From: an uncultured Bacteroidia bacterium
Lineage (GTDB): Bacteria > Bacteroidota > Bacteroidia > Bacteroidales > CAJPTX01
Direction: 5' to 3'
Assembly: GCA_963543925.1 (NCBI GenBank)
Contig: CAUUCP010000003.1
Coordinates: 13,763 to 77,762, forward strand
Length of the DNA stretch: 64,000 nt
A model generated the notes under the pieces. The model searched no databases, was not told where the DNA came from, and saw only the letters and a list, made by a program, of their open reading frames with translations. The position numbers and the translations under genes were made by a program. Shown in pieces: positions 15,700 through 64,000 of this stretch (position 1 is its first letter; each line of letters starts with the position of its first letter).

Positions 15700-17340
15700 C
15701 TATCCTTCAATCCCGCCCGTCCGGCGCGAGGACCGCCCGTCTGGCACGAGGACCCACGACCCGATGTTGCGCTTCTCCTCATCAAAGGAAGCGCCGATGA
15801 GGAGGAGTTTCTTGTGTGATGATTGGTAAGGGGCAGCGTAACCCTGAGCGATGATTTGCGCGATAGCATCCTCGGGGGTTCCTGCACTCCAGAGCTTTAA
15901 CTCAAAGATGTAGATCACCTGGTCGGTGTGGACGATAATATCTGCCCGCCCCTTGTTGTTGTGCACCTCGGTATGGACAAATTTCCCTAACAAGGTAAAG
16001 ATGAAGTAGAGGGCGACTTGTGCATCGCGTTCTCGGTACTCGACGTCGTTGATATTGTCATAAGGCACGCCCGCCAGGAGGGACTCTATCTTGGCCATGA
16101 TCTGCGCTACGTCGCCTGTCTCTATAGCCTCTTGGAACTCCCAGACAGCCGCCCCGGTCTCGGAGTATTTGAGTGGCGCGAGGATGGGCTGTAGATTGCC
16201 GAGGAAACTATACTTTACCTCGTCGTTCGGAAATCCGAGGCGATAGGTCTCGCTCGCGGGGAGGTAATCTTTGATCGTCAGATATCCTGCTTGGAAGAGT
16301 ACGGGGATCACATCCTGCGAATCGGTGCTATAATTTTCCAAGGCAAAGCGTGGGACGGGGACTCCCTTTTCGAAGTTTGGGAAGTAGTGCCGTTCGTGTT
16401 TGAGCTTCTCTACGAGGAAGGTGGGAGTGCCCGTTGTGTACCAATAGTTGCTAAATCGCTTCTTTTGCAGTACGTTGAGTAAACTAAAGGGGTTGTAGAC
16501 GTGCACGTCGCTGTCTTCTGTAAAGAGGTAACCGTCGTAGTGTTTTTTGAGTTTAGCGAGCATGTCTTGGTGGGAGAGGTTTTCTTTGGCAGCGAACTCC
16601 TCGATCTCGGGGGCAAAATTCGCTTCTAGTTCCGCCTCGGTAATACCACAGATTCCAGCCATATTCCCATCCATACTGATATCATTCAGATGGTTAAGAC
16701 CGCTAAAGATCCCCACCTTACTGAAGCGCGTTACGCCCGTTAGGAAGACGAAGCGGAGGTATTCGCTAGTTCCCTTTAGGACGGAGTAGAAGGCGTGGAG
16801 CATCTCCTTGTAGCTCTGGTGAATCTCGTGGCGATGAAGAGTATCGAGGAGAGGCTTGTCGTACTCATCAATCAGGACGACCACTTGTTGCCCTGTTTTT
16901 TTACACGCACGCTGTATGACCCCTCGGAAACGGCTCGGATAGGTCTGTTCCGCGGGCTCAACCCCATAACGTTTTTCCCACTCGGTCAATGCGACATTCA
17001 GTGTATTATTAAGCTCAAATTCGCTGGTGTAACGTTCTTCGTTCAATGTTAAATAGAGGACAGGATACTCCAGCCACGGCTGACGTTGCTCGTCTGCTGC
17101 GAGCTCGGGTTCGGCATCTTCTAGATAGAGTCCCTGAAAGAGCTCTTTCTTTCCTAGGAAATAGGCTTCGAGGGTGGAGAGTAGGAGGCTCTTACCGAAG
17201 CGCCGCGGACGACTGAGGAAGTAGGCTTTACCTTTTAGTAACTGGTAGATATACTGTGTTTTATCCACGTACAAAAAGTTCCTTTTGCGAAGGTCTTGAA
17301 AGCTCTGCTCGCCCACAGGCATTACACGTTTTGCGGTCAT
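15700..17340 (-). CDS. ATPase-nuclease fusion protein, copy A (Predicted AAA-ATPase N-terminal domain + PD-(D/E)xK PDDEXK_9-like C-terminal domain)
   Basis: The 546 aa ORF begins MPVGEQSFQDLRKRNFLYVDKTQYI. The Walker A-like motif is FLSRPRRFGKSLLLST and the Walker B is VVVLIDEYDKPL. Further motifs are FLTGVTRFSKVGIFSGLN and the C-terminal nuclease-like GRADIIVHTD..IYIFELKL. This is the architecture I recall for Pfam PF09820 + PF08011 proteins, which are abundant in Bacteroidales. Confidence 0.85.
   Translation of the reverse strand: MTAKRVMPVGEQSFQDLRKRNFLYVDKTQYIYQLLKGKAYFLSRPRRFGKSLLLSTLEAYFLGKKELFQGLYLEDAEPELAADEQRQPWLEYPVLYLTLNEERYTSEFELNNTLNVALTEWEKRYGVEPAEQTYPSRFRGVIQRACKKTGQQVVVLIDEYDKPLLDTLHRHEIHQSYKEMLHAFYSVLKGTSEYLRFVFLTGVTRFSKVGIFSGLNHLNDISMDGNMAGICGITEAELEANFAPEIEEFAAKENLSHQDMLAKLKKHYDGYLFTEDSDVHVYNPFSLLNVLQKKRFSNYWYTTGTPTFLVEKLKHERHYFPNFEKGVPVPRFALENYSTDSQDVIPVLFQAGYLTIKDYLPASETYRLGFPNDEVKYSFLGNLQPILAPLKYSETGAAVWEFQEAIETGDVAQIMAKIESLLAGVPYDNINDVEYRERDAQVALYFIFTLLGKFVHTEVHNNKGRADIIVHTDQVIYIFELKLWSAGTPEDAIAQIIAQGYAAPYQSSHKKLLLIGASFDEEKRNIGSWVLVPDGRSSRRTGGIEG
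15704..15752. repeat. Short GC-rich repeat unit (TCCTTCAAT-N3-CGCCCGTCYGGCGCGAGGA) followed by a 20-nt partial tandem copy
   Basis: The sequence tccttcaatcccgcccgtccggcgcgagga is followed by ccgcccgtctggcacgagga. It overlaps the 3' end and stop of ATPase-nuclease copy A. Confidence 0.7.
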
Positions 17341-17401
17341 TCTCTTCTGGTCTATTCTTGCGAAAGGTACGAAAAGTCCTCAGGCTTCAAGGTAAGAACC
17401 G

Positions 17402-17476
17402 TCCTTCAATTTGCGCCCGTCTGGCGCGAGGAGCCCTTCCGCCTATCCTTCAATCCCGCCCGTCTGGCGCGAGAAC
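17402..17476. repeat. Two more copies of the ~30-nt GC-rich repeat unit at the junction of the tandem duplication
   Basis: The two copies are tccttcaatttgcgcccgtctggcgcgagga (17402-17432) and tccttcaatcccgcccgtctggcgcgagaa (17447-17476). Each contains the small hairpin GCGCC-cgtct-GGCGC or a 4-bp version of it. Confidence 0.7.
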
Positions 17477-19063
17477 CCACGACCCGATGTTACGCTTCTC
17501 CTCATCAAAGGAGGCGCCAATGAGGAGGAGTTTCTTGTGTGATGATTGGTAAGGGGCAGCGTAACCCTGAGCGATGATTTGCGCGATAGCATCCTCGGGG
17601 GTTCCTGCACTCCAGAGCTTTAACTCAAAGATGTAGATCACCTGGTCGGTGTGGACGATAATATCTGCCCGCCCCTTGTTGTTGTGCACCTCGGTATGGA
17701 CAAATTTCCCTAACAAGGTAAAGATGAAGTAGAGGGCGACTTGTGCATCGCGTTCTCGGTACTCGACGTCGTTGATATTGTCATAAGGCACGCCCGCCAG
17801 GAGGGACTCTATCTTGGCCATGATCTGCGCTACGTCGCCTGTCTCTATAGCCTCTTGGAACTCCCAGACAGCCGCCCCGGTCTCGGAGTATTTGAGTGGC
17901 GCGAGGATGGGCTGTAGATTGCCGAGGAAACTATACTTTACCTCGTCGTTCGGAAATCCGAGGCGATAGGTCTCGCTCGCGGGGAGGTAATCTTTGATCG
18001 TCAGATATCCTGCTTGGAAGAGTACGGGGATCACATCCTGCGAATCGGTGCTATAATTTTCCAAGGCAAAGCGTGGGACGGGGACTCCCTTTTCGAAGTT
18101 TGGGAAGTAGTGCCGTTCGTGTTTGAGCTTCTCTACGAGGAAGGTGGGAGTGCCCGTTGTGTACCAATAGTTGCTAAATCGCTTCTTTTGCAGTACGTTG
18201 AGTAAACTAAAGGGGTTGTAGACGTGCACGTCGCTGTCTTCTGTAAAGAGGTAACCGTCGTAGTGTTTTTTGAGTTTAGCGAGCATGTCTTGGTGGGAGA
18301 GGTTTTCTTTGGCAGCGAACTCCTCGATCTCGGGGGCAAAATTCGCTTCTAGTTCCGCCTCGGTAATACCACAGATTCCAGCCATATTCCCATCCATACT
18401 GATATCATTCAGATGGTTAAGACCGCTAAAGATCCCCACCTTACTGAAGCGCGTTACGCCCGTTAGGAAGACGAAGCGGAGGTATTCGCTAGTTCCCTTT
18501 AGGACGGAGTAGAAGCCGTGGAGGGTATTCTTTATTTTTGCATGGAGCTCTGCGTCACCTAGTGTATCGATCAAGGGTTTGTCGTATTCGTCTACTAGGA
18601 CGACCACCTGTTGCCCAGTCTGTTCGTATGCGCGACGGATAATCCCGCGGAAACGTGTAGCGAAATCTTGTTCCGAGGTTTCTGTTCCATAGTGTTTTTC
18701 CCAACCTGTCAATTGGTCATTCAGGTTGATTTCGAGGGTTCCAGGACGCTTGTTATTGTTATCACTCAGGTCGAGGTAGAGGACAGGATACTCCTGCCAC
18801 GGCTGACGTTGCTCGTCTGCTGCGAGCTCGGGTTCGGCATCTTCTAGATAGAGTCCCTGAAAGAGCTCTTTCTTTCCTAGGAAATAGGCTTCGAGGGTGG
18901 AGAGTAGGAGGCTCTTACCGAAGCGCCGCGGACGACTGAGGAAGTAGGCTTTACCTTTTAGTAACTGGTAGATATACTGTGTTTTATCCACGTACAAAAA
19001 GTTCCTTTTGCGAAGGTCTTGAAAGCTCTGCTCGCCCACAGGCATTACACGTTTTGCGGTCAT
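17450..19063 (-). CDS. ATPase-nuclease fusion protein, copy B (same family as 15700-17340)
   Basis: The track ORF runs to a TTG at 19279. The ATG at 19063 gives the same N-terminus as copy A (MTAKRVMPVGEQSF...). Away from the very C-terminus, copy B matches copy A except for an ~88-codon central cassette. Confidence 0.85.
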   Translation of the reverse strand: MTAKRVMPVGEQSFQDLRKRNFLYVDKTQYIYQLLKGKAYFLSRPRRFGKSLLLSTLEAYFLGKKELFQGLYLEDAEPELAADEQRQPWQEYPVLYLDLSDNNNKRPGTLEINLNDQLTGWEKHYGTETSEQDFATRFRGIIRRAYEQTGQQVVVLVDEYDKPLIDTLGDAELHAKIKNTLHGFYSVLKGTSEYLRFVFLTGVTRFSKVGIFSGLNHLNDISMDGNMAGICGITEAELEANFAPEIEEFAAKENLSHQDMLAKLKKHYDGYLFTEDSDVHVYNPFSLLNVLQKKRFSNYWYTTGTPTFLVEKLKHERHYFPNFEKGVPVPRFALENYSTDSQDVIPVLFQAGYLTIKDYLPASETYRLGFPNDEVKYSFLGNLQPILAPLKYSETGAAVWEFQEAIETGDVAQIMAKIESLLAGVPYDNINDVEYRERDAQVALYFIFTLLGKFVHTEVHNNKGRADIIVHTDQVIYIFELKLWSAGTPEDAIAQIIAQGYAAPYQSSHKKLLLIGASFDEEKRNIGSWVLAPDGRD

Positions 19064-19106
19064 TCTCTTCTGGTCTATTCTTGCGAAAGGTACGAAAAGT
19101 CTAGGG

Positions 19107-19129
19107 CTAGACGGGCGGAAATTGAAGGA
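19107..19129. repeat. Inverted partial copy of the ~30-nt GC-rich repeat unit
   Basis: The plus strand gctagacgggcggaaattgaaggag is the reverse complement of ctccttcaatttccgcccgtctagc. It starts just where identity between the upstream regions of copies A and B ends (19101 / 17378). Confidence 0.55.
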
Positions 19130-19245: not shown

Positions 19246-19468
19246 CTTTAGGGAATCCTAAAGCGCTATTTTTATACAATAAACTAAATAATAGCGTACT
19301 GGAATAAAGAAATACGTATAGCGCATAGGCTATTTTGGCGTAGGTAATTTTACCTAATATAGTCGGTGTAGCGTCGGTGTATAGTCGGTGTAGCGTACGT
19401 GTAGCATTGGTGTACTCCGAACATGCCTTGTTTTGGGAGTGGGAATTGAGGAAAATATAAAGCGGTAT
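19246..19468 (+). repeat. 223-bp dispersed element, copy R2
   Basis: It has the same length as 61261-61483 and aligns end to end with it in direct orientation. The first 32 nt (ctttagggaatcctaaagcgctatttttatac) and last 25 nt (aattgaggaaaatataaagcggtat) are identical. By eye the element is roughly three quarters identical overall. It contains five 11-nt units at 19361-19415. Confidence 0.8.
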
Positions 19469-19620: not shown

Positions 19621-22578
19621 TCAGAGGTCGCCCCCTAACCCCTTGTATCGTTCCACGAACTCTACCAGCTTCGCATATACGCGGTTCTTTTTCGGGAGAT
19701 ACTCTGGGAGGAGGGGACTCATGCGCGGGAGGATATCACTGAGCTCGGTTCCATTCTCATTCACATACTCCCGTTTGAGCGAGAGGATAAGGAAATGCCG
19801 AGCCTTATTTTCGTTGAGCTCCTCCTCGCAGATGAGGTCTATTATCTCCTGTTCCTTCCTTTTTCTCGCATAAGCGTAAAAGGCGGAAATAAGCGCGTCT
19901 TTATCGGTTATGGTATCAAAGCTTGCAGTGTTTATAAAATCGATTATAAGCGCCTCTTTTGCGCGATTTGAGATACTTGCTTTCGTCATTCGACGTACCT
20001 CCTCTACCAGCGCCTCCTTGTCCTTACGTTTCTTATGGTATTGAAAGATGAGGTCTAGGATATATTCGAGGGTTATTTCCTGCGACTTGAGCAATTCGAC
20101 TTCGAAGACAACGTCCTTCCAGTCGATTTTTTCCTTTTCCTGCTTTTCTTCTCCTGCACGGAGTGCACGACGCCAGTCGCGGATATCGTTATACACGGAT
20201 CGGTAATCTTGCAATGCTCGCTCGGGGAGTACTTCGAGCTCCTGCATCGTCTTCATATCGTCGTCGGTTAAGAAATGTGCTTCCTTGAAGGCTTCTACAG
20301 CTGCAGGGTTGCTCTTATCTATGTGTTGGAAGGCTTTGAGGTAGGTAAACTCGTCGTAGTTCTGTAGGATGTTCTCTATCCGTAGGTAGTCGCCAAAGAG
20401 CTTTACAAAGGTCTTCTTCTCCTCCTCCTTTTCTATCTCCTTGGGTCGTGGGAATATTCCCTTAAGGTCTTGCACGATGGCGCGATAGCCCCGTTTTGCT
20501 TCCCCAGTAAGGATATCGGTAAATCCCTCAAGGTACTCTCGATAACTCTTTTCCAAGACCACGTTACGTGTTTTCTTATCGCCGAAGAGTGTAATGGCAT
20601 CAATCGTGTGTTGCTCTAGGTCTCGGAAGGTGACGATATTCCCAAAGCTTTTCGTAGCGTCATAAATACGGTTTGTACGAGAAAAGGCTTGTATCAGCCC
20701 ATGGTAACGCAAATTCTTGTCTACGAAGAGTGTATTTAGACATGGCGCATCAAAACCCGTGAGGAACATTCCCACCACAATCAACAGATCTACCTCTCGA
20801 CGCTTTACCCGCTTGGCGAGGTCGCGGTAGTAGTTCTGGAAATTCTCTATTCCAAAGCTACTTGGCGTTGGAAAAGCGGCGTTATAGTCTTCTATGGCTG
20901 CCATGAGGAACTCTTTGGCGGTAGTGCCCATGGCGCTAGGGTTGAAGTTCTCATCAGCGATCTCCCCCACGGCTTGTTGCTCCTCGTTAGGGGCAAAAGA
21001 GAAGATGGTGGCAATGCGCAACGGCTGCTCTTTCCCCTCTTGCTGCCTCTTAAACTCTTGGTAATAGAGCTTGGCGGCCTCGATGCTGCTCACAGCAAGT
21101 ATCGCATTAAATCCCGTTCCTGCGGTGGGGTTACGATGAGTCTTAGTATCGTAGTGCTGTAAAATGTAGTGTGTAATCTCCTTAATGCGCTGTGGGTGTA
21201 GGAAGGCTTCTCGTGTTTCTGCGGCGTTAAGCTTCTGTTCGTCTTGTTCACTTTCAATCCCTTTGAAGCGCGGGCGTACGTTGTTATAATCGACCTTAAA
21301 CTTCAACACCTTCTGGTCGCGAATGGCGTCGGTGATCACATAGGCGTGTAGCTCTGGACCGAAGACCGAGGCTGTAGTTTCAGCAGTGGGTGAATTTTCA
21401 GGGAAGATCGGTGTGCCCGTAAAGCCGAACTGATAGTAGCGTTTGAAGCGCTTACGGAGGTTCTTTTGCCCTTCGCCGAATTGCGACCGGTGTGCTTCGT
21501 CAAAGATAAAGACCACCTCCTGTGCATAGACGGGGAGATCCTTCTCGCTCTTGAGCAGGTTGGAGAGCTTCTGGATAGTGGTCACGATAATACGTTGATC
21601 CTTCTTTTCTAGGTTACGTTTGAGCTCCTCGGTGCTCTCTGAGCCGTTGACACTATCGGGGGAGAAGCGTTGGTACTCCTTCATAGTCTGGTAGTCGAGG
21701 TCTCGCCTGTCGACCACGAAAAAGACCTTTTCAATGAAGGGTAATTGGGTTGCTAACTGTGCCGCCTTAAAGCTCGTGAGTGTTTTGCCCGAGCCTGTAG
21801 TATGCCAGATGTAGCCTCCCCCCTCAGGGGTTGACCAAAGCTTCTCTTCGTGTGCGATGCGGATTTTCCAGAGGATACGCTCTGTGGCGGCTATCTGATA
21901 GGGTCGCATCACGAGGAGCGTCTTGGTCGTGTCAAAGACGGAGTAGGTAAGGAGTGTATCCGTACCGTTTGAGATGACAAAGAGCTGCAGGTAACGAAAG
22001 AGCGAGCTTTCGGCATTAAAACTCTCTTTGGCGTAACGTTGCACTTGGTTGAATGCTTCTCGAATAGCCACTCCACGCTTCTTAAGCTCGATTTGCACCA
22101 TTGGCAGCCCGTTGACTAGGATAGTCACGTCGTACCGATTGCGCCGCGTCCCCTCTTGTTGAAACTGTGTGAGTACTTGTAGTTTGTTGAGCGCAACGTT
22201 CGTTTTGTCTACGATACGGATGTTCTGCTCCCGCCCATCGTCAAAACGAAACTGATAGGCGTCGTCGTGATGAATCTTCTCTGTTTTCTCTATCAGCGTG
22301 TCGGCAGGCTTGTCGAGATACTCTGTCAGAAGTCGCGCCCACTCCGAGTCCGAAAATACTACGTTGTTGAAAGTCTCGAGCTGACGACGCAAGTTGACAA
22401 GCAAATCCGCAGACGTCTTCAATTCTAGGTATTCGTAGCCCTGCTTTTTTAGGTCGGCAACAAACTCACGTTCGAGGTCTGCCTCTGTTTGATAGGTGGT
22501 ATTTCCCTCGTAGTATGTAGTATATTCCTCAAGAACGATATAGTGATTGGATTCTGCAATTACGCTTCTGGCACGCAT
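19621..22578 (-). CDS. hsdR: Type I restriction enzyme R subunit (HsdR)
   Basis: The PD-(D/E)xK nuclease motif is [18 protein letters not shown] and the QxxxY motif is NQVQRY. The helicase motifs are MRPYQ, TTGSGKT (Walker A), [10 protein letters not shown] (DEAH) and FGFTGTP. The start is taken at the ATG at 22578; the track start is a GTG at 22593. Confidence 0.9.
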
Positions 22579-22592
22579 TTTACCTCCCCCCA

Positions 22593-24176
22593 CTACGAAG
22601 CGCTCTTGGTAAAATGCTCAATAGCACGGATCTGCTGGTTGATATCTGTGCGCAGGGTGTCGATCTTTTTTACAATCTCCTGTATCGTTGTATTGAGTGC
22701 ACGAATGTCGGTCTCCTCTTCCGCCTCTGTTTCTTGCACCATAGTTCGTTCCCCCAGATAGGTCGTTACCGAGAGGTTGTAGCCGTTCTCTACAATCGTT
22801 CGATAATCCACCATAGTGGCGATATTGGGCAATTTTTGCTTAGTGGCAAAGAGCTCGATGAGCGCCGCGATGTGCTCGTCTGTAAGGACGTTGTTGTTCA
22901 CCTCCTTCTTGTAAAACTGCTCAGAGGTAGCATCAATAAACTGGATATCTGTTCCCTCCTTATGCTTGGATAGTACGAGGATGTTGGTGGCTATCGACGT
23001 ACCATAGAAGAGTCTATCGGGGAGGGCGATAATAGTCTCCACATAGTTGTTATCGACCAAATACTTACGGATTTTCTGTTCTGCACCTCCGCGGTAGAAG
23101 ATTCCTGGGAAACAGACAATCGCCGCCCGTCCGCGTGCAGAAAGATAGTTCAGAGAGTGAAGTACAAAAGCGAAGTCTGCTTTATTTTTCGGGGGGAGCA
23201 CTCCCGCAGGTGCGAAGCGGTCGTCGTTGATAAGTGTGGGGTCGCCAGTTCCTATCCATGTAATGGAGTAAGGGGGATTGGATACGATGACATCAAATGG
23301 CTTATTCTCAAGGAATTGTGGGGCAGTGAGGGTATCGCCTAGCGTTATGGAGAACTTGTCGTAATTGACCTCGTGGAGGAACATATTCATCCGCGCTAGG
23401 TTGTAGGTGGTGTGGTTAATTTCTTGCCCAAAGAACCCTTCCTCTATCGCATTCTCTCCCAGTTGCTTCTTCACCTGCAAGAGTAGCGAGCCCGAGCCTG
23501 CCGCTGGGTCATACACCTTGTTTACAGAGGTCTGTTGATGAAGGGCGAGGCGTGCCAATAACTTTGAGACGTCCTGCGGGGTAAAGAACTCCCCCCCCGA
23601 CTTTCCAGCATTCGCCGCATAGTTCGAGATGAGGAATTCGTAGGCATCCCCAAAGAGGTCGATGTGGTGTTCTTCAAACCTACCGAAGTTTACCTCTCCG
23701 ACACCGTTGAGCACTGCAGCAAGACAACGATTGCGGTCAGCCACCGTGTTACCGAGGCGCGTACTTGAGGTATCAAAATCGGAAAACAGTCCCCTGATAT
23801 TCTTTTCTGACTCATAGCCGATCGCCGAGCTTTCTATTGCACGGAAGATGGCAGCGAGGTCGGTATTAAGGTTCGGATTAGTATGAGCCGTCTTACAGAC
23901 ATTGCTAAAAAGCTGCGACGGGTAAATAAGATAGCCCTTGGTACGAATTGCTTCATCTCGAAGTACATCCGTGATGATACTATCCTCCATCGCTGCGTAA
24001 TTTAGCGAGGAATCGCCCGCCTCGATATAAGCGACAAAGTTCTCACTAATAAAGCGATAGAAGAGCGTCCCGAGGACAAATTGTTTGAAATCCCACCCGT
24101 CGACTGCTCCGCGCACGTCGTTGGCGATCTTCCAAATCGCCGCCTGTAACTCTGCTCTTTGTTCTACACTACTCAT
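22593..24176 (-). CDS. hsdM: Type I restriction-modification N6-adenine DNA methyltransferase subunit (HsdM)
   Basis: The HsdM_N-like N-terminus is [33 protein letters not shown]. The AdoMet motif is [13 protein letters not shown] and the catalytic motif is VSNPPY. The start is taken at the ATG at 24176; the track start is a GTG at 24185. The stop TAG abuts the hsdR region. Confidence 0.92.
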
Positions 24177-24354
24177 GGTTGTCACTCCTTCCTAGTGTGG
24201 AACAAAAGTAAAGCAAAAGAATGTGCTAAGCAATCTTTCTAGCCACAATCCCCAGACACCACACAGGCAGTACGATAGATATTAGATGTTAAGGTTTAAC
24301 GTTGGATAAGCGACACAACACGCCGCGAGTCTACGGCATTGACACTTCCCTCGG

Positions 24355-25227
24355 TCAATGCTTCCCCCACTTCACTTGCACTCTTTCTTCGCTAGCAATA
24401 CGTTCTTCGAGTTCACGCACAAGGGTAACCTCGCGATGGTTGAGAATAATGCTCCGCACCTCGTTTTTCACGATAGGAAATGGGGCGACCTCTCCTATGG
24501 GTTTCCACTCCTGAAAAGCAAGGAAATAAACCAAACCGTCCTTCACAAACTCTGCATTACGGACACGACGGTTATCTAGGGCGAGATCTAAGTCTGCTGG
24601 GAGGTACTTTGCCAAGGAGGTCAATGGACACCACTCCTCGGGGGTGAATAGGAACTGTATTCCAGCCTTCATGGAGAGAGAGGAGAGCTTCTGCATATTC
24701 TCGTCATTGACGGGACGTGCATAGAGCTCTTTCACCTCGGCAATATGTTGGCTTCCCTCTGGAATAGTGAGTAGGAGCACCCTCACCAATGGATGTTTTA
24801 AAGTGAAGAGAGGATGATTATCGTCATAGAACTGCTGCATCTCAGACTCGGCAACGAGAGTATCCAGTTTCGTCTGAACATACTGGCTCTCAAAAGACTG
24901 TGTATAAAGGGAACGACGAAAATCCTCCACCTGTCGTTCCAGCTGGGGATTGTCCTTCCCGATCTGTTTTTCTGCATAGAGGTAGAGACGCGTGTTTCGT
25001 ACCCAGATGTCCACGTATTGCTTTACCGCTATAGTACTATCCTCCCGCGATTTACCCTGATAGAGATCCTGTGGGAGTGCAGTACGTAGTAGGACATGAT
25101 CCTCCATCTGTACCACAACATCCTGATTCGAAGCGTGTTCAGAAGAACACGAGCCCAGAAAACAGCCCCAACAGAGCAGCCCCACAAGCAGAAAAATGGG
25201 ACGAAAAGCAACGGAATACCCTTGCAT
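24355..25227 (-). CDS. Hypothetical lipoprotein (possibly SurA_N-like chaperone domain without a PPIase domain)
   Basis: The 290 aa ORF has a lipobox, FLGSC. Its weak resemblance to the helical N-terminal part of SurA/PpiD-like proteins is recall only. Confidence 0.4.
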   Translation of the reverse strand: MQGYSVAFRPIFLLVGLLCWGCFLGSCSSEHASNQDVVVQMEDHVLLRTALPQDLYQGKSREDSTIAVKQYVDIWVRNTRLYLYAEKQIGKDNPQLERQVEDFRRSLYTQSFESQYVQTKLDTLVAESEMQQFYDDNHPLFTLKHPLVRVLLLTIPEGSQHIAEVKELYARPVNDENMQKLSSLSMKAGIQFLFTPEEWCPLTSLAKYLPADLDLALDNRRVRNAEFVKDGLVYFLAFQEWKPIGEVAPFPIVKNEVRSIILNHREVTLVRELEERIASEERVQVKWGKH

Positions 25228-32100: not shown

Positions 32101-33822
32101 ATGGCAGAATTAAGCGTCAAACAGAACACCATCATCCGTTACTTCCAAGATAACCCGAAAGGCTTTCTTATCCCCGATTACCAACGCCCTTATTCTTGGG
32201 AAGAAGACCAGTGTGAAAAGCTTTGGAATGACCTCTTTACATTTACCTTACCCGAACTGCAGGAGGGCAAGTTTGACTCGGATCGGAACTACTACCTCGG
32301 CTCTATCGTAACTTTTGTAAATCAAGAGGGCAAGACAGAGATCATCGACGGTCAACAGCGAATCATTACCCTAATGCTCCTTTTACGGGCTTTTTTGAAG
32401 AGTGCTGCCACGATGCCGGATCCAGAGACAAAGGCTCTGAGCATCGGGATTCAGAAATGCATTTGGCACATGGATGAGTTTGACATCAAATGCCTTGCGA
32501 CAAAGCTAGAGACTGAGGTGGCTAGCGACGACGCGAAAAGAGACTTCCTAGAAATTCTAGATACGGGGAATGCCCCTACGAATGCGAAAAATCGGTATGC
32601 CAAGAACTATCAATTCTTTGAAAAGAAGATCGAGGCGTTCAAAAAGGATTATCCTACGTACTTTGCTTATTTTCCACAGCGCGCCATGCGCAACTGTGTG
32701 CTTTTTCCGATAGAGACCTCGGATCAGAATGCTGCCTTGCTTATCTTTTCTACACTCAATGACCGCGGCCTTCCCCTCTCCGATTCCGACATCTTCTACT
32801 CTAAACTCTATAAGTTTTACAAGGAAAAGGGGGAGGTAGAAAGAAGCAATTTTGTGGAACAGTGGCGCGATCTCTCTGAGCGTTGCGAACAGCTCTTTCA
32901 TCCATTTAACGCTACGCCAATGGATGAGCTATTCATCAAATATATGTTTTACCGTCGCGCTTTGGAGAATGAGACTGGGTTGATGACCCGAGGAACGCGA
33001 AGCTTTTTTGAGAAAAATGACTACAGTGTTTTACGAAAAGACGAGGTTTTTCCGACCTTGCAGAAGATAGCAAGCTTCTGGAGCGATATCTTTGATCAGA
33101 ATACGAGCATCTATTCTTTGGAGGTTCTCAAGCGCTTCTCTATCCTTGCGCAAGCCCCTAACCTACTCCCCTCTCACTTCATAACAGTCTACTATCTTCT
33201 TGAGCCGCCCACGAATGACGAAGCATGGCTCGACCTTTTAGAGCGCCTCATAGCCTGTATCCTGCTTTACTCCATTTGCAAACCTGGGCTTGACTACCTC
33301 CGTACACCGCTTTATAACGAAATGGCTCATTATGCCAAGGAACGAACCACTGATTTCAAGCAGTATGCCTTGTGGAATGAATCTAGTATCCGCGACGCCT
33401 TTCAGACCTTTAGCATCACGCGCAACCAATCGGTGAAATTCCTACTCTACTGGTATGCATACCAGAATCCGCAACAAGAACTTATCCCCACTGGAAAGAA
33501 GATTAGTGTCGAACATATCTTTTCCAAAAATAGAGCCTCTATCCAAGGAGCATTCAATGACCCGAACAGTGTCGAACTTTTGGGAAATAAGTCCATCATG
33601 GAGAGCAACCTCAATATTCGAGCCTCTGACTTCCGCTTCGAAGATAAACGTGCTTATTACCTCGGAACGCGTGACGACAAGCGTAAGCCTACGATGATTA
33701 GAGACCTGCGAGACCTCGCCTCAAACAAAGCAGATTTTACGGAACAAGATATTTTGGATCGTACAGAGCATATCTTCCAAACTCTTCTTGTCTTTTTACG
33801 AAGGTATGATTTGGTAAAATAA
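32101..33822 (+). CDS. DUF262 + DUF1524 two-domain protein (GmrSD-like, putative modification-dependent type IV restriction endonuclease)
   Basis: The N-terminal DUF262 hallmarks are FLIPDYQRPYSWEEDQCEKLWNDL and IDGQQRIITL. The C-terminal His-Me-finger-like DUF1524 hallmarks are SVEHIFSKN and LLGNKSIMESNLNIRASD. It is the only plus-strand gene within about 55 kb. Confidence 0.8.
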   Translation: MAELSVKQNTIIRYFQDNPKGFLIPDYQRPYSWEEDQCEKLWNDLFTFTLPELQEGKFDSDRNYYLGSIVTFVNQEGKTEIIDGQQRIITLMLLLRAFLKSAATMPDPETKALSIGIQKCIWHMDEFDIKCLATKLETEVASDDAKRDFLEILDTGNAPTNAKNRYAKNYQFFEKKIEAFKKDYPTYFAYFPQRAMRNCVLFPIETSDQNAALLIFSTLNDRGLPLSDSDIFYSKLYKFYKEKGEVERSNFVEQWRDLSERCEQLFHPFNATPMDELFIKYMFYRRALENETGLMTRGTRSFFEKNDYSVLRKDEVFPTLQKIASFWSDIFDQNTSIYSLEVLKRFSILAQAPNLLPSHFITVYYLLEPPTNDEAWLDLLERLIACILLYSICKPGLDYLRTPLYNEMAHYAKERTTDFKQYALWNESSIRDAFQTFSITRNQSVKFLLYWYAYQNPQQELIPTGKKISVEHIFSKNRASIQGAFNDPNSVELLGNKSIMESNLNIRASDFRFEDKRAYYLGTRDDKRKPTMIRDLRDLASNKADFTEQDILDRTEHIFQTLLVFLRRYDLVK

Positions 33823-43655: not shown

Positions 43656-44849
43656 CTAATTAACGTATCGTTGCACGTCCATAGCCTCGATTTCCCCGTC
43701 GGTCATAATCAGCAATCGTTCGACGATATTGTGTAATTCCCTGACATTTCCCGTCCACGGACGTTCACAGAGGAGATCCATGGCTTCTTTGGAAATTTTT
43801 CGTTTAGAGACACCATTTTCTTTACACAAGGAAGAGACGAACCGCTCGACCAGGAGAGGTATATCCTCCTTACGTTCTCTGAGCGGCGGTACATGAATGA
43901 GGATGACACTGAGACGATGATAGAGATCTTCTCTGAAGAGTCCCGCTTGAATTTCCTCCGACAGATTTTTATTCGTTGCGGCAATCACTCGTGGGTTGAC
44001 CTCAATTTCCTTATCCCCTCCCACTCTGGTGATACGTGATTCTTGGAGGGCACGCAAGACCTTTGCTTGCGCATCGAGGCTCATATCTCCGATTTCATCG
44101 AGAAAGAGAGTCCCATTGCATGCGAGCTCGAACTTTCCCTTTCTCTGTTTAATGGCAGAGGTAAAAGCACCTTTTTCATGCCCAAATAGCTCGCTTTCGA
44201 TAAGTTCACTTGGTATGGCGGCACAGTTCACCTCGACAAAAGGACCGTTGGCTAAGGAACTCAACTGGTGTATCCCACGCGCCACGAGCTCCTTTCCTGT
44301 TCCGTTCTCTCCGGTGATAAGCACACGGGCATGGGTAGCAGCCACACGGCGCATCATCGCTCGTATTTCTTGCATGACCTCGGAATCTCCGACGATTTCG
44401 GAATTCTTTGGTACGTGTTGCTTTAGTCGTTGATTTTCCTCTACCAAGGAGTTCCTTTCCAAGGCATTTCGTAGAGAGACCAAGAGTCGATTCAAATCCA
44501 AGGGTTTTTGGATGTAATCGTAAGCGCCCTTTTTCAGAGCCTCGACAGCGGTGTCTATGGATCCGTGTCCAGAGACCATAATCACAGGGAGTTCTGCAGC
44601 AATTTCTCGTAGCGCGACCAAGAGTTCGAGCCCATCCATTCCCTGCATTTTGACATCACACAGGGCGACGTCACATGGCGCATTTCGGAAAATATCTAGC
44701 GCCTCCCTGGCTCCATGTGCACTCTCGACGGCGTATCCCTCGGTTTCGAGGATGCTACGCATAGTCTGTAGTATTGCATCTTCATCATCTACGACCAAGA
44801 TGCGCGCGAGAGGGGGAGGTGAAGGACGTTTCTTAGTACTCTCCCTCAT
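43656..44849 (-). CDS. Sigma-54-dependent response regulator (REC + AAA+ sigma-54 interaction domain) with no recognisable C-terminal HTH
   Basis: The REC domain has ILVVDDE...D..MQGMDGLELL. The Walker A is GENGTGKE, the GAFTGA variant is EKGAFTSA, and Walker B is LFLDEIGD. The protein ends about 25 aa after NVRELHNIVERLLIM. The ATG at 44849 overlaps the upstream TGA by 1 nt. Confidence 0.85.
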   Translation of the reverse strand: MRESTKKRPSPPPLARILVVDDEDAILQTMRSILETEGYAVESAHGAREALDIFRNAPCDVALCDVKMQGMDGLELLVALREIAAELPVIMVSGHGSIDTAVEALKKGAYDYIQKPLDLNRLLVSLRNALERNSLVEENQRLKQHVPKNSEIVGDSEVMQEIRAMMRRVAATHARVLITGENGTGKELVARGIHQLSSLANGPFVEVNCAAIPSELIESELFGHEKGAFTSAIKQRKGKFELACNGTLFLDEIGDMSLDAQAKVLRALQESRITRVGGDKEIEVNPRVIAATNKNLSEEIQAGLFREDLYHRLSVILIHVPPLRERKEDIPLLVERFVSSLCKENGVSKRKISKEAMDLLCERPWTGNVRELHNIVERLLIMTDGEIEAMDVQRYVN

Positions 44850-45427
44850 CAACTACCTCCCATACGTCGTTGTTCTTGCTCGACGATCTTTCTTTCTCTT
44901 TCCTCGTTTTTCTTCTGCACCTCTTTCTCCAACTTCTTTGCTTTCTTGAGGTACTCCTTTGCACGCTCGAGCTTCTTTTTTCCTCGCTCTTGCATCCTTT
45001 CTCCCTTTCTTCGACTCTTCTCGGCTTCTCGGAGTTCTTTTTTCACGCTCCTCACCTCTTCCCGATATCGACTCTTAAGGTCACGCACCTGCACTTTTGC
45101 CTGTGCTCTTTCGTCCCGATCCTTTGAATTCAATTGTTTGTTGAAAGAGCTCAACTCCCTTTCGTGTTCCTTAAGCATCCGCTTGAGGTTTTTCGTCTGA
45201 TCCTTAGCTTCGGACTCACCTTGCTTTTCCATAGAGCGTCCGTCCATGACGAGTTGTTTGGCATCCTCTATTTTCTTTTCACCTTCTACCACTCTTTCAG
45301 AAGCGCGCGCCAATCGCTCTGCTGGCGTTGGAGTATTTGTTGCCGGCTGGGCATACAAGAGGACGGGGAAGAGAATCCCCATCCCGCATACGATCCCGAA
45401 CCGAAGTATCTTCGCCCAAATTCCCAT
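44849..45427 (-). CDS. Hypothetical secreted, highly charged (Lys/Glu/Arg-rich) coiled-coil protein
   Basis: The 192 aa ORF has the signal peptide MGIWAKILRFGIVCGMGILFPVLLYAQP, then about 150 aa of KE-rich heptad-like sequence. It is translationally coupled to the regulator downstream. Confidence 0.5.
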   Translation of the reverse strand: MGIWAKILRFGIVCGMGILFPVLLYAQPATNTPTPAERLARASERVVEGEKKIEDAKQLVMDGRSMEKQGESEAKDQTKNLKRMLKEHERELSSFNKQLNSKDRDERAQAKVQVRDLKSRYREEVRSVKKELREAEKSRRKGERMQERGKKKLERAKEYLKKAKKLEKEVQKKNEERERKIVEQEQRRMGGS

Positions 45428-45730: not shown

Positions 45731-46600
45731 CTAATTCTTGACACGATGGGCACTTTTCCACCAAAAATAGCCACCGAGTAGCAAAAAGGAGAATAGAATC
45801 CCGCCCATCGGCAGGGCATACTTTTCTGGCTCTACCCAGAATTCCTTGAAAAAATTGATTCGTCCGAGGATCTCGACAGGGGTCCAGAAGATGATGACGG
45901 TAGCGATAGCCATCCGTATATTGGCGCCCCAGCTGGGAATACGGAGTTGTTTTCTGAACATGAAGATGGAACCTATCAAGCATCCCAATCCCACAAGGAA
46001 GGTGACGGGGTGGTGATCACCTAGGAAATTCTTGTCATAACAGAACATCAATAGGAGATAGAGCCCCCAGAGCATCATGTTGACCTCCATGAAGGTAACG
46101 ATACTGGTGTGTCGTGTCATGGCCTGAGGCACGATATCTTTTTTCTTTTCACGGAAGAGCACCTTCTGTATCCACGTAATGAAATCGCAACCATTCTTGG
46201 AACTGAAAGTATAGAGGGTCATGACCAGCATCCACATTCCGAATGTGGCGGGGAGGATGAGATATTCGGGCTTTGTAACGACCTCCCCATTTTCCATTTC
46301 GGGCATGACTCCGTAGCGACGGGCATAGTACATGAATAGGAATTCGACCCACCCTGTCCAGAAGAGTAAACCGCCGAGGAGTCCCCAGAGAGTTTGTCGT
46401 GTGTCCCCCTTGACAAATACCCCTACAATCACGAAAATCAAGCCCATAAGCCCGATTAAAAAGCCCGCGATGTGCATTGGACCTTCGTCCATATACTTTT
46501 CCATCAGCACCATGACGGCATGACCGATGGGCATAGTGAAAAGCACCAATAAAAAAGAGGCTATAGTACGCCAAGGGTAGAGTTCTCTTCTTGGTTCCAT
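45731..46600 (-). CDS. Hypothetical polytopic membrane protein (about 7-8 TM helices)
   Basis: The ORF has hydrophobic helices throughout. The start is taken at the ATG at 46600; the track start is a TTG at 46627. I do not recognise a family. Confidence 0.5.
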   Translation of the reverse strand: MEPRRELYPWRTIASFLLVLFTMPIGHAVMVLMEKYMDEGPMHIAGFLIGLMGLIFVIVGVFVKGDTRQTLWGLLGGLLFWTGWVEFLFMYYARRYGVMPEMENGEVVTKPEYLILPATFGMWMLVMTLYTFSSKNGCDFITWIQKVLFREKKKDIVPQAMTRHTSIVTFMEVNMMLWGLYLLLMFCYDKNFLGDHHPVTFLVGLGCLIGSIFMFRKQLRIPSWGANIRMAIATVIIFWTPVEILGRINFFKEFWVEPEKYALPMGGILFSFLLLGGYFWWKSAHRVKN

Positions 46601-46673
46601 GGATTCTTTTTTCTTCTCTATTTTCAAACCTTATGCCACAAAAGAAGGGACGTGATCAACGCCCCTCGTTGTG

Positions 46674-49808: not shown

Positions 49809-49832
49809 ACGACGATCCTCCTCTCTGCTTTG

Positions 49833-50233
49833 TGGAGCTGGCGGGAATCGAACCCGCGTCCAAACAAGGAATACCGATGCTTTCTACATGCTTAGCCTCC
49901 GGTTGGTTGTTGAGTAGGCAACGGACGGAGACACCCAATACCTACCCTAGTTCCTAAATTTTCGGGACATGTTCGGAACGTCCATGCGCCTATTCCTGTA
50001 TTTCCAGTGCCTCGAGCCGGGACGCAACAGGACTAGTGCTTCCCGTGAGACATCTCGTCTACACCACTCGTGGGCGCAGATTAAGCTTTATTAGACAAGG
50101 CTAATTAAGCAGCGAGAGCAAAAGAATTTTCGCCATTTAATTGGTTCGCACATTTTGTTTAACGAGCACTCCGTGCAACGCTCGACATGCTTACAACGCC
50201 ATTCTACCTGCTGTCAAAACCAAAGTCAGCCCC
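49833..50233 (-). ncRNA. ssrA: tmRNA (SsrA), about 401 nt
   Basis: The 5' end GGGGCTGACTTTGGTTTTGACAGC pairs with the 3' end ...GCGGGTTCGATTCCCGCCAGCTCCA, giving an acceptor stem with a G3:U pair and a T-arm. The internal tag reading frame GGC GAA AAT TCT TTT GCT CTC GCT GCT TAA encodes GENSFALAA-stop (50105-50134). CCA is not fully encoded. Confidence 0.9.
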
Positions 50234-51100: not shown

Positions 51101-51103
51101 TTG

Positions 51104-51177
51104 CGGTCTGGACGAGACTCGAACTCGCGACCTCCGCCGTGACAGGGCGGCATTCTAACCAACTGAACTACCAGACC
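51104..51177 (-). tRNA. tRNA-Asp (anticodon GTC), 74 nt
   Basis: The sequence is GGTCTGGTAGTTCAGTTGGTTAGAATGCCGCCCTGTCACGGCGGAGGTCGCGAGTTCGAGTCTCGTCCAGACCG. It has a 7-bp acceptor stem, the anticodon stem-loop CCGCC/CTGTCAC/GGCGG, and the T-loop TTCGAGT. Confidence 0.95.
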
Positions 51178-51945: not shown

Positions 51946-52082
51946 TCTTACTTGAAATTTTGTAACAAAGATAATAGAGATCTCCCAAGCCCCCTCGCTC
52001 CGCCTTTCTAAAAGAGATGCTGGGATGCAGCGACTCGGCCACATCCCAGCAAAAAGATCTCTTTCTATAAGATTGCCCCTGT

Positions 52083-58129: not shown

Positions 58130-58188
58130 CTTTTTCTGTTGAAGTTCGTGGGTAGGACGGAATACCACATAAAAAGTTACACAACTAC

Positions 58189-58196
58189 TACCTTTG
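58189..58196 (+). promoter_or_regulatory. Candidate -7 element (TAnnTTTG) for the PBP gene
   Basis: The plus strand reads TACCTTTG 19 nt upstream of the ATG at 58216. Confidence 0.4.
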
Positions 58197-58215
58197 CACA
58201 CAGAATAATCGTTTT

Positions 58216-62416: not shown

Positions 62417-64000
62417 ATGAGCTATCCACGCCGCTTGCCCATCAGTACGCAAAGCTTCAAACAGTTGCGTAGAGATGGAGATCTCTATGTCGATAAGACG
62501 CAGTATATCGAGAAGCTCTTTTCGCTCGGACGCATCTTCTTCCTCAGCCGTCCGCACCGTTTCGGAAAAAGCTTGTTCCTTTCTACACTAAAAGCGTACT
62601 TCGAGGGGAAGAAAGAGCTCTTCCAAGGACTCTATATCGCAGCACACGAGGAGGAGATCGCCCGCAGGCAACAACGCGAGCCTTGGGAGGCGAGTCCCGT
62701 GCTTTACTTCGACTTCAATGCAAAAGACTATGAAAGCCACGACACATTGAAGAAACGAATGAATGCGCAATTGCGAGAGCTCGAAGCACACTACGAAATA
62801 ACAAAAAAAGACGACGACCCAGACGATCGTCTTATCTATCTAATAAAAAGTATCTACGAAAAGACAGGTAAGCAGGTGGTTATCCTGATAGACGAGTATG
62901 ACAAACCGCTCCTACTTACCCTAGAAGACCCAGAGTTGAACAAAACCAACAGCGACCTGCTCCGCGCCTTCTTTGAGGTGCTAAAGCACTGTGACCGCTA
63001 CATCCGCTTTGCCATGCTGACGGGCATCACCAAGTTTAGTAAGATGAACCTCTTTAGCGGAGCGAACAACTTGAAGGATATCTCGTTATTGGACAACTAT
63101 GCTGCCATCTGCGGCTTTACGGAGCAAGAGCTCGCGGACTATTTCATGCCCGAGATAGAGCGACTCGCCCAAGCGGAAAACACCTCGGTAGAAGCGACAC
63201 GCCAACGACTGAAGAAAGAGTACGACGGTTACTGTTTCTCGCGCAAAGGAGAGAAGGTCTACAATCCCTTTAGCCTATTGAATGTCTTGAGCGATAGTGT
63301 CTACAGTTACTATTGGTTCGAGACGGCGACCCCATCCTATCTAGAGAACTACCTGAGACGCACTAACATCTTTGTGCCCGATTTGGATAGGGATATCAAG
63401 ATCGGGGTACAAGCGGTACAGGATTTCCGTTACAACGACAAAGATTCGCTTATTCCTCTTCTTTATCAATCGGGTTACCTTACGATTAAGGGGGTACTCG
63501 GCAATGGGATGATCCTTCAGTTGGGATACCCTAATGAGGAGGTGCGCTTCGGCTTCCTACATGAACTCCTCCCTCGTTATTCTCACCTTACTCGCATCAA
63601 TATTGATATCGAAGTATTACAGCTTTACGAATACCTCGATACGGGCAACCTTGCCAAAGTCATGGAGCTTGTCAGGACGCTTCTGGCTGGCGTGCAGTAC
63701 GGCAATATCCCCAAGGGTGAGAAAAGACGTCCGCTGCGCGAACAGTATTATCAGACCGTTCTTTATGCTGTCTTCCGTCTTTTAGGGGTCTATTCCCAGA
63801 CGGAGGTGGTCTGTGCCACGGGGCGTATCGACATGCTTGTCACCACGACGCACCATGTTTATATCTTTGAATTCAAGGTCAATACGCAAGGATCGGCACA
63901 GGACGCTATTATGCAAATCAAGGAAAACGAATACTATCACTTAGTAGCTCAAGAGGGTTGTCCGATCCATTTGGTGGGTGTCAGCTTTGACGAGAAGGCG
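62417..64000 (+). CDS. ATPase-nuclease fusion protein, copy C (divergent paralog of 15700-17340 / 17450-19063); 3' end beyond the right edge
   Basis: Not in the ORF track because there is no stop in the window. My translation from the ATG at 62417 begins MSYPRRLPISTQSFKQLRRDGDLYVDKTQYIEKLF..FFLSRPHRFGKSLFLSTLKAYFEGKKELFQGLYI. It continues with VVILIDEYDKPL...MLTGITKFSKMNLFSG...GRIDMLVTTTHHVYIFEFKV and stays open to nt 64000. Confidence 0.85.
   Translation, partial: MSYPRRLPISTQSFKQLRRDGDLYVDKTQYIEKLFSLGRIFFLSRPHRFGKSLFLSTLKAYFEGKKELFQGLYIAAHEEEIARRQQREPWEASPVLYFDFNAKDYESHDTLKKRMNAQLRELEAHYEITKKDDDPDDRLIYLIKSIYEKTGKQVVILIDEYDKPLLLTLEDPELNKTNSDLLRAFFEVLKHCDRYIRFAMLTGITKFSKMNLFSGANNLKDISLLDNYAAICGFTEQELADYFMPEIERLAQAENTSVEATRQRLKKEYDGYCFSRKGEKVYNPFSLLNVLSDSVYSYYWFETATPSYLENYLRRTNIFVPDLDRDIKIGVQAVQDFRYNDKDSLIPLLYQSGYLTIKGVLGNGMILQLGYPNEEVRFGFLHELLPRYSHLTRINIDIEVLQLYEYLDTGNLAKVMELVRTLLAGVQYGNIPKGEKRRPLREQYYQTVLYAVFRLLGVYSQTEVVCATGRIDMLVTTTHHVYIFEFKVNTQGSAQDAIMQIKENEYYHLVAQEGCPIHLVGVSFDEKA

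Follow-up and report, generated by a model that had tools for sequence, protein, structure and literature searches.

Two tandem DUF1703 genes of an uncultured Bacteroidales bacterium and an anciently diverged, recurrently exchanged block in their ATPase domain

How can two neighbouring gene copies be identical letter for letter over most of their length and differ at some 40% of positions in a single internal block of the same length? This question is raised by a pair of genes, copy A and copy B, in a 64,000-nt stretch of DNA (the window) from an uncultured Bacteroidia bacterium of the order Bacteroidales (assembly GCA_963543925.1, contig CAUUCP010000003.1, positions 13,763 to 77,762). Both genes encode proteins of the DUF1703 family, and the differing block, here called the cassette, lies in the ATPase domain. 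Our results showed a tandem duplication, ancient divergence of the internal segment, the presence of both segment types in other genomes, recurrent swaps of this segment with shared boundaries, and combinatorial assortment of segment types within the family.

The tandem pair and its proteins

The two copies lie head to tail in repeat units (Table 1) that align without a gap at an offset of +1723 nt, according to a fixed-offset comparison and a repeat finder. There was no mismatch between the units across 15800-16792 (993 nt) and 17073-17378 (306 nt). Mismatches are crowded into 16793-17053, followed by a single outlier at 17072 (the equivalent stretch of copy B is 18516-18795), and five more are bunched at the 3' end of unit A, in 15746-15796. 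In terms of codons, the N-terminal flank (codons 1-94) differs at 1 of 282 nt, the cassette (codons 95-183) at 110 of 267 nt (58.8% identity, without any indel), and the C-terminal flank (codons 184-531) at 4 of 1044 nt, all four differences being synonymous and located in the last 50 nt. Outside the cassette, 5 of 1326 coding positions differ in total. Substitutions are thus not evenly spread along the genes (binomial P = 5e-78 for at least 111 of 115 mismatches falling inside 280 of 1593 nt).

An initial annotation, made from the sequence alone, had described the locus as an exact 1723-bp tandem duplication with a strongly diverged cassette of the same length between near-identical blocks. 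The cassette was confirmed, and so were the offset of 1723 and the gapless match. The duplication is not strictly exact. A 77-nt junction parts units A and B outside the aligned repeat, and a 20-nt indel in a short GC-rich motif distinguishes the 3' ends of the two copies. Because of this indel, the A and B proteins differ in their C-terminal tails. The peptide strings quoted in that annotation were correct, and the antisense open reading frames (ORFs) that it found repeated at +1723 (for example, 16547-16789 and 18270-18512) are real, being a trivial by-product of the duplication. For copy B, the most plausible start codon is the ATG at 19063, which corresponds to the start of copy A; the upstream TTG at 19279 is merely where the ORF lister began.

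The initial annotation had assigned the proteins to a family of unknown function. They are not anonymous: both copies scored above the gathering thresholds of two Pfam models, PF09820 (AAA-ATPase_like; 228.8 and 229.9 bits against a cut-off of 26.1, residues 8-212) and PF08011 (PDDEXK_9; 64.4 bits against 25.5, residues 437-529), an ATPase followed by a nuclease, and therefore belong to the DUF1703 family. This family, defined by its AAA-ATPase_like and PDDEXK_9 domains, was described with an atypical Walker A motif, RPRRFGKS, and a Walker B motif, DEYD, as signatures (Knizewski, 2007; PMC1913061). Two further reports assign no function to it (PMC3424549; PMC6387759). In copies A and B, RPRRFGKS occupies residues 44-51 and the Walker B segment VVVL(I/V)DEYD residues 153-161 (DEYD, 158-161), and the motif residues are invariant or nearly so across 61 homologues. 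In the same alignment, E437, R438, D439 and D467 of the PD-(D/E)XK nuclease are at least 90% conserved, and E480, K482 and Q495 are invariant. The layout is accordingly an N-terminal AAA+-like ATPase, a helical middle region and a C-terminal PD-(D/E)XK nuclease. As the initial annotation stated, the cassette (residues 90/98-183) occupies the interval between the two Walker motifs and continues beyond the second of them.

It had also raised the possibility that the cassette forms a surface-exposed insertion. In the AlphaFold2 model of copy A, built on the 61-homologue alignment (mean predicted local distance difference test score, pLDDT, 78.8), it is instead a unit of the ATPase core, made up of beta2, two helices, the Walker B strand and a further helix. 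The elements predicted here are beta2 (94-98), helices at 107-125 and 134-149, the Walker B strand (153-158), helices at 162-166 and 171-190, and a strand at 195-200. The cassette extends from beta2 to helix 171-190, with a pLDDT above 90 over most of the block. The predicted order of secondary structure fits an ASCE core (beta1/P-loop/alpha1/beta2/alpha2/beta3 Walker B/alpha3/beta4 plus a helical lid). Inside the cassette, the conserved positions form a hydrophobic stripe (L110, L114, L118, E122, Y125) together with the catalytic strand, and the least conserved residues are 101-117 (the loop and helix start after beta2), 130-135 (the loop between the helices) and 171-179 (after beta3). Foldseek searches against the PDB with the model gave weak matches (TM-score 0.2-0.3, E 1e-4 or weaker) to Apaf-1, Cdc6/Orc1, Vps4, TnsC and Avs4, and its C-terminal part weakly matched the CidB/CinB nuclease domains.

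Ancient segment types and their recurrent exchange

Between the two cassettes, the proportion of differing synonymous sites was 0.74, which indicates synonymous saturation, with dN 0.42 and dN/dS of about 0.12, while the flanks had a dS of about 0. These estimates leave out three cross-locus NG86 comparisons (the window against L049 and L052), in which an indel shifts the frame. The mismatches are spread over the bases without an adenine bias (A 30, G 28, C 27, T 26). The initial annotation had argued that uniform drift cannot give near-identical flanks around a diverged core, and such drift is excluded by the saturated synonymous sites of the cassette next to flanks almost free of synonymous divergence. 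The cassette difference is that of an anciently diverged allele, not of local hypermutation.

Both versions also occur elsewhere. The A cassette is 94% identical in amino acids to the same block of the homologue P0002 and 84-85% identical to those of P0003 and P0005; between the B cassette and the block of P0013, identity is 90%. The B cassette differs at only 2 amino acids (about 98% identity; 93.5% in nucleotides) from the second gene of L001, a contig from another sample. A-type and B-type blocks share about 50% identity with each other. Within the B type, ordinary constraint was seen: between copy B and the second L001 gene, the cassette has dN 0.01, dS 0.33 and dN/dS of about 0.03, and the flanks have dS 0.22. 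Close full-length relatives of each copy, such as two simply juxtaposed paralogs might have, were not found elsewhere, the best non-self match being 84% identical. An exact-protein look-up of copy A and of P0002 returned no record, the A/B protein cluster (P0001) has two members on one contig, and a scan of species-representative genomes gave nothing closer than 78% identity. A scan of the Joint Genome Institute (JGI) metagenomes returned mostly relatives of at most 51% identity, plus three short N-terminal fragments, and yielded the tandem arrays L023, L036 and L040; a cassette-only query of 107 amino acids, run with a word prefilter, gave just three short and distant matches.

The same block has been exchanged at other loci. 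P0018 and P0020 are alleles of one single-copy locus from different samples, with the same neighbours (TrkH ... PNP_UDP_1 / gene / giant protein of the type IX secretion system, T9SS). They differ at 139 nt, nearly all of them in gene nt 279-572 (flank dS 0.03, block dS 1.6); the block of the window pair covers gene nt 269/288-548. At a locus between H_PPase and DapB, L053 has one gene, which is A-type (P0003), and L058 has two tandem genes, A-type and then B-type (the second being P0016). The L058 pair thus shows the same A/B pairing as the window, and its 3' halves are 100% identical. In L060, from a clade that shares only about 55% identity with copy A, the two tandem genes agree fully over the last ~1000 nt and almost fully over nt 121-290, diverging only in nt 1-115 and about 290-425 (regions I and II). 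The same blocks of low identity recur in the tandem arrays L023, which has three copies, and L036.

At the H_PPase/DapB site, copy number is polymorphic, and the single gene of L053 resembles a fusion of gene 1, which would give the 5' part, with the 3' end of gene 2. L054-L056, which are independent contigs of about 2.0 kb, end some 300 bp upstream and 50-90 bp downstream of the gene at this locus, as expected for assembly breaks at repeat borders.

Across the family, a scan of 119 homologues found 59 pairs with identities of 93% or more outside the cassette and of 75% or less inside it, and 0 pairs with the reverse pattern. The same block has been swapped independently at least 8 times among near-identical proteins, with a shared left boundary. 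Together with the occurrence of both types elsewhere, this supports the proposal of the initial annotation, which offered two alternatives: a cassette swapped in by recombination, or flanks homogenised by gene conversion around cores that selection keeps different. Replaced patches in near-identical pairs cluster at residues 11-40, 90-151 (often extending to 157-192) and 219-297, and once at 381-414; none was seen in the nuclease domain among the near-identical protein pairs scanned. At a threshold of 72% identity, the number of types among the 119 sequences is 18 for residues 11-40, 24 for 96-151 and 19 for 219-297. In the backbone clade that includes A and B, 10 of the 16 possible (2 x 2 x 4) type combinations were observed, and several pairs of types show all four combinations, so recombination is required. 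The variable blocks are bounded by conserved islands at residues 42-59 (Walker A), 156-164 (Walker B), 198-218, 281-288 and 299-310. DUF1703 genes are thus segmentally variable mosaics, in which discrete ancient types stand between conserved islands and assort independently.

These patterns make it likely that homologous recombination or gene conversion among family members reassorts ancient segment alleles, with breakpoints in the conserved islands. In the window, about 1.65 kb of the two copies would have been made identical very recently, either through duplication or, as seems more likely, through gene conversion in a tandem array of greater age. A segment of about 280 bp would then have been replaced through homologous recombination by an anciently diverged allele from the pool of family paralogs and alleles. 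The cassette would be one of three or four exchangeable modules, at residues 11-40, 90-190 (a module that may be divided at Walker B), 219-297 and, in rare cases, 381-414, with borders in the most conserved motifs: Walker A, Walker B, the sensor-1 region, VYNPFSLL and YWYxTGTPTF. In the simplest mechanism, ordinary recombination between diverged copies may start and resolve only in the conserved islands, and the diverged interiors may block heteroduplex extension and so persist as discrete types, while gene conversion would homogenise tandem copies everywhere but in the modules. Such a restriction of recombination to the islands, with interiors that block heteroduplex, would explain the shared boundaries, the discrete types and the homogenisation of tandem copies elsewhere.

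History of the pair and competing explanations

The history of the pair was read against L001, a 2.7-kb contig from an independent assembly that is collinear with the B-to-A junction of the window, down to the pair of motif copies in the spacer. Identity between the two L001 genes is only about 80%, which implies that the tandem array is older than the homogenisation seen in the window. Both carry B-type cassettes. The downstream gene, at the position of copy A, is 92.5% identical in nucleotides to the shared N-terminal flank, rising to about 95% near the junction, yet its cassette is B-type. Copy B matches this gene alike in flank (92.5%) and cassette (93.5%), and matches the upstream L001 gene at 79.9% and 82.0%, so copy B looks like the intact, unaltered gene of the lineage. 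The upstream position was apparently overwritten by, or duplicated from, the lineage of copy B, if the order of events is read correctly, and copy A most likely received an imported A-type block afterwards.

What the cassette does may be approached through its position in the ATPase. In classical AAA+ motors, the loops after beta2 and beta3 are the pore loops; in Cdc6/Orc1, DnaA and TnsC, an additional helix that follows beta2 serves as the initiator-specific motif, which contacts DNA. Residues 99-106 and 167-177 of the cassette may take the positions of pore loops or of an initiator-specific motif. Because the segment spans such substrate- or DNA-contacting loop positions, we propose that the cassette may tune what the ATPase engages or which subunits assemble, with a constant nuclease effector. 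The neighbours of some family loci lend weak contextual support: A and B lie by hsdR and hsdM, the third paralog of the window by a half-size hsdS, P0004 (L057) by EcoRII and a methylase, and P0003 near an ATPase-DUF4276 pair. It is conceivable, if on balance unlikely, that the DUF1703 proteins form a recognition family with combinatorial diversity, for example as innate-immunity-like ATPase-nucleases. The exchangeable AAA+ elements that contact substrate or partners would then be the N-terminal segment, the lid, the loop that follows beta3, and the loop and helices that follow beta2. Bacteroidia would hold at least two specificities in their tandem arrays, and concerted evolution would homogenise the catalytic scaffold, whereas cassettes would stay different and be traded across paralogs, strains and species. 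The diversified module proposed by the initial annotation is supported as a recurrently exchanged block, and its role in specificity is what we infer.

Several points weigh against this account of history and function. The searches returned no near-identical A-type cassette that could have been the donor: the nearest is 94% identical in amino acids (protein only), and the nearest DNA 82%. The order of events depends on a single close relative, the 2.7-kb L001, and the perfect flank identity over 993 and 306 nt is known from a single metagenome contig. Minor differences between repeats can be lost in assembly, and short reads, if nothing else was used, cannot phase cassettes across 1 kb of identity. 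For the functional part, PDB sequence searches with the single protein and with the 61-sequence profile found no solved homologue, and an NCBIfam search found no match. PADLOC-DB 2.0 gave no significant match, the best being PDC-S54 (E = 0.0014, 16 bits) and PDC-M29B (E = 0.006), to the nuclease core only. The defence-like context is found only sometimes, other family loci being without defence neighbours.

A further objection to the functional reading, and one that has a substantial chance of being correct without being the probable answer, is that the mosaic is real and non-adaptive: crossovers would resolve only in conserved motifs, and the interiors would be reshuffled neutrally as blocks, without particular specificity. 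The coincidence of patch boundaries with the most conserved islands, the ordinary purifying selection on the block within a type and the heterogeneous genomic contexts are all consistent with this, and no test for positive selection was passed. However, the tandem pairs that are otherwise fully or partly homogenised (the window, L058 and L060) all keep different region II blocks, and the blocks of low identity are the same in L023 and L036, which are less homogenised. Discrete types are also common to backbone clades that are 30-45% diverged, and the variation avoids the hydrophobic stripe of the cassette, which suggests a structured surface rather than decay.

The import of an A-type block into copy A has its own competitor, the second alternative of the initial annotation, which we regard as possible but somewhat unlikely. 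Two old tandem paralogs, one A-type and one B-type, might have been homogenised on both sides by two conversion tracts that halted at the cassette, with selection keeping the cassettes distinct and no fresh import. What look like stages of such a process are seen in L058, where only the 3' half is homogenised, in L060, where all but regions I and II are, and in L023 and L036, with their low-identity blocks in the same places; the A-type plus B-type pair of L058 moreover belongs to another species. The 3' end of the unit (15746-15796), only about 92% identical, is as expected past the end of a conversion tract. In contrast, both array genes of L001, the closest relative, are B-type, and the one at the copy A position has A-like flanks with a B-type cassette, so that an A-type resident was not ancestral there, judging from this one relative. 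The two scenarios leave the same final pattern, and the data discriminate between them weakly.

It is quite improbable that the pair is an assembly artefact, either strain alleles strung into a false tandem or a real pair of about 97-99% identity made 100% identical by bubble-popping. Exact repeats of 993 and 306 nt are hard for short reads in a metagenome contig, the A and B proteins are carried by one contig only, and at single-copy loci elsewhere the same block truly varies between alleles. However, the window pair differs at its 3' ends and is joined by a unique 77-nt junction, and the same junction architecture joins the two genes of L001 in an independent assembly; a false tandem would not yield a junction sequence conserved in another sample. 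Tandem pairs with the same pattern also occur in other assemblies (L058, L060, L023 and L036). The conserved junction and the recurrence of the pattern in independent assemblies therefore make an artefactual tandem structure unlikely.

Local accelerated divergence after duplication, by targeted mutagenesis or strong positive selection in place, is refuted almost beyond doubt: the sharp-edged block of equal length superficially resembles a pair of variable and template repeats, but its synonymous sites are saturated, its dN/dS is about 0.12, its mismatches involve all four bases, the window ORFs of at least 150 amino acids include no reverse transcriptase, recombinase or transposase, and both cassette versions pre-exist in other genomes.

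Specific machineries were considered as well. Pfam scans of the same ORFs found no reverse transcriptase, recombinase, integrase or transposase, and a repeat finder found no inverted repeats at the cassette borders (16793/17072 and 18516/18795). The four-base mismatches and the absence of a reverse transcriptase from these ORFs rule out a target of a diversity-generating retroelement, in its variable repeat/template repeat (VR/TR) form, and the absence of border inverted repeats and of a recombinase among the same ORFs rules out a site-specific shufflon or invertible cassette; saturated synonymous sites argue against these and against in-situ positive selection. For conversion from silent cassettes as in pilS, only full-length paralogs were found: within the 64-kb window, tblastn and blastn matched the two full genes and one distant full-length paralog, with no partial silent cassette.

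Neighbourhood, related systems and significance

The features of the locus and its surroundings are listed in Table 1.

Table 1. Position of the tandem DUF1703 genes, their repeat units and cassettes, and other features of the window (coordinates are those of the window)
Feature	Coordinates	Strand	Details and basis
Copy A gene, DUF1703 family, A-type cassette	15700..17340	-	546 aa; ORF, Pfam PF09820 (7e-68) and PF08011 (1e-17), AlphaFold2 model
Copy B gene, DUF1703 family, B-type cassette	17450..19063	-	537 aa from the ATG shared with A; ORF, Pfam
Repeat unit A	15733..17378	.	Includes 38-nt leader upstream of ATG (17341-17378); repeat finder and offset comparison
Repeat unit B	17456..19101	.	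Includes identical 38-nt leader (19064-19101); repeat finder and offset comparison
Cassette of copy A	16793..17072	-	Gene nt 269-548, residues 90/98-183; mismatch map
Cassette of copy B	18516..18795	-	Length equal to A cassette, 59% nt identity; mismatch map
A/B junction	17379..17455	.	Two GC-rich motif copies (17402-17432, 17446-17475); same architecture in L001
GC-rich motif, 3' end of copy A	15703..15752	+	Tandem 20-nt unit CGCCCGTC[CT]GGC[GA]CGAGGAC; source of 20-nt indel
GC-rich motif copies in junction	17402-17432, 17446-17475	+	Sequence comparison
Inverted GC-rich motif copy	19101..19129	-	Directly upstream of copy B leader; 86% complementary to 17402-17430
hsdR, type I restriction	19621-22593	-	Pfam
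hsdM, type I restriction	22593-24185	-	Pfam
tmRNA gene	49832-50233	-	Tag peptide GENSFALAA
tRNA-Asp(GTC)	51103-51177	-	
Half-size hsdS	61692-62207	-	171 aa, one Methylase_S domain; Pfam
Third DUF1703 paralog	62417..63997	+	Both Pfam domains, 44% aa identity to A/B, runs off window end; tblastn, Pfam

The GC-rich motif at the ends of the two copies belongs to a family of intergenic repeats with the core CCGTC[CT]GGCG[CT]GAGGAC, often following TCCTTCA.., which is found at the ends of DUF1703 genes in several genomes. Further sites are L001 1975-2100, L003 5915-5965 and 7681-7731, L053 9715-9760 and 17222-17602, and L057 7875-7962. In some cases the reading frames continue through the repeats in different phases, and the C-terminal tails vary accordingly. 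Direct repeats of 51-75 nt, perfect or nearly so, enclose the family gene in L003 and L057. A role of the motif as the mark of a mobile unit or an attachment site was set aside, since it also occurs away from family genes (L053 17222-17602). A structured RNA or terminator was dropped too: the folding z-scores against shuffled sequences were +0.4 and +1.7, and only the 41-nt inverted copy reached -2.4, with a 5-bp stem. A search of Rfam at E <= 0.1 between positions 15 and 20 kb of the window gave no match. The motif is more aptly called a dispersed intergenic repeat, one that may offer homologous sequence for unequal crossing-over. In addition, an 11-nt unit is repeated five times in tandem (TATAGTCGGTG / TAGCGTCGGTG; 19358-19412) inside the 520-bp non-coding gap between copy B and hsdR.

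The window holds three DUF1703 genes within 64 kb. The type I restriction genes hsdM and hsdR overlap end to start and have no adjacent hsdS; the sole recognisable specificity gene is 37 kb away, by the third paralog. An inversion between the A/B pair and the third paralog that split the restriction genes was considered and rejected, because its geometry fails to join hsdS with hsdM/hsdR. A GmrSD-type (type IV) restriction endonuclease (32101-33822, +) stands alone between secA and the ATP synthase operon, as a further isolated gene of defence among otherwise housekeeping genes. Seven ORFs of 192-604 amino acids had no Pfam match at the thresholds used (24355-25227, 44849-45427, 45731-46627, 51295-52044, 52083-53897, 53930-55669 and 56690-58201, all on the minus strand), and the first of them, which codes for 290 amino acids, lies directly upstream of hsdM.

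Beyond the window, 70 records of plasmids or secondary replicons carry family members (34-50% amino acid identity), including those of Parabacteroides, Bacteroides, Persicobacter, Moraxella and the Simkania plasmid pSn. Family members are also carried by 32 short unannotated contigs labelled 'Bacteriophage sp.' from human faecal viromes, which may be contaminating bacterial DNA. These plasmid and virome occurrences hint at horizontal spread of the DUF1703 family.

Recombination among DUF1703 paralogs has been described before. The Cardinium strain cCpun has an expanded paralog set with intragenic recombination detected by RDP4 and PHI (Siozios, 2019; PMC6387759). The Cardinium set shares with the genes described here the domain architecture, RPRRFGKS, DEYD, the D...ExK...Q residues and the multi-copy state (three copies in the present 64-kb window), and its evolution is reticulate, with paralogs averaging 39% identity and no homogenisation noted. 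In contrast, the genes described here show discrete modules with shared boundaries, tandem copies that are about 100% identical outside the modules, and exchange that is also allelic at single-copy loci. No description of a discrete module structure was found in the available text on the Cardinium genes (PMC6387759).

The mosaic also recalls other systems. Conserved stretches flanking discrete diverged blocks, homologous recombination and combinatorial variants are shared with the exchange of target recognition domains in HsdS and with 'segmentally variable genes', a concept of Zheng, Roberts and Kasif (2004; PMC387263). In HsdS, however, what varies is a domain devoted to DNA recognition, with a known function, and it is often exchanged by means of inverted repeats and a recombinase, whereas the block described here lies inside a P-loop ATPase core, includes the Walker B strand, and has neither flanking inverted repeats nor a recombinase in the window. 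Neisseria pilE/pilS and Borrelia vlsE likewise undergo non-reciprocal transfer of a diverged internal segment, guided by conserved flanks, to a gene that is expressed. Unlike these, the window contains full-length paralogs only and no promoterless partial cassettes, the product is predicted to be a cytoplasmic enzyme and not a surface antigen, and the types are ancient and stable instead of cycling rapidly. A resemblance to STAND/AAA+ immune proteins (Avs/AVAST, NLR-like), Cdc6/Orc1 and TnsC lies in the weak Foldseek matches, the architecture of an ATPase with a nuclease effector, and the frequent proximity to restriction systems. However, the DUF1703 proteins have no C-terminal repeat sensor domain and no significant PADLOC match, and known immune ATPases vary in the sensor domain, whereas the DUF1703 block varies between Walker A and Walker B.

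The DUF1703 family and the recombination of its paralogs are already known, and a tandem duplication is in itself ordinary. What appears to be new is a discrete, recurrently exchanged module between Walker A and Walker B that has shared boundaries and is spared by concerted evolution. The A/B pair is a clean natural example of conversion tracts bounded by divergence, with the variation placed between the two Walker motifs. It also explains why family genes are often found on contigs of about 2 kb, and it cautions that their copy number and cassette phase are easily mis-assembled. DUF1703 is a large and often multi-copy family of Bacteroidota (Bacteroides and Parabacteroides of the gut among them), spirochaetes, methanogens and intracellular symbionts that has been catalogued since 2007 without a function. 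If the sharply bounded modules of its ATPase are indeed ancient, reassorting types, they would point to where specificity may reside in these proteins, and this lead would be strengthened if tandem copies do stay identical save for the modules.

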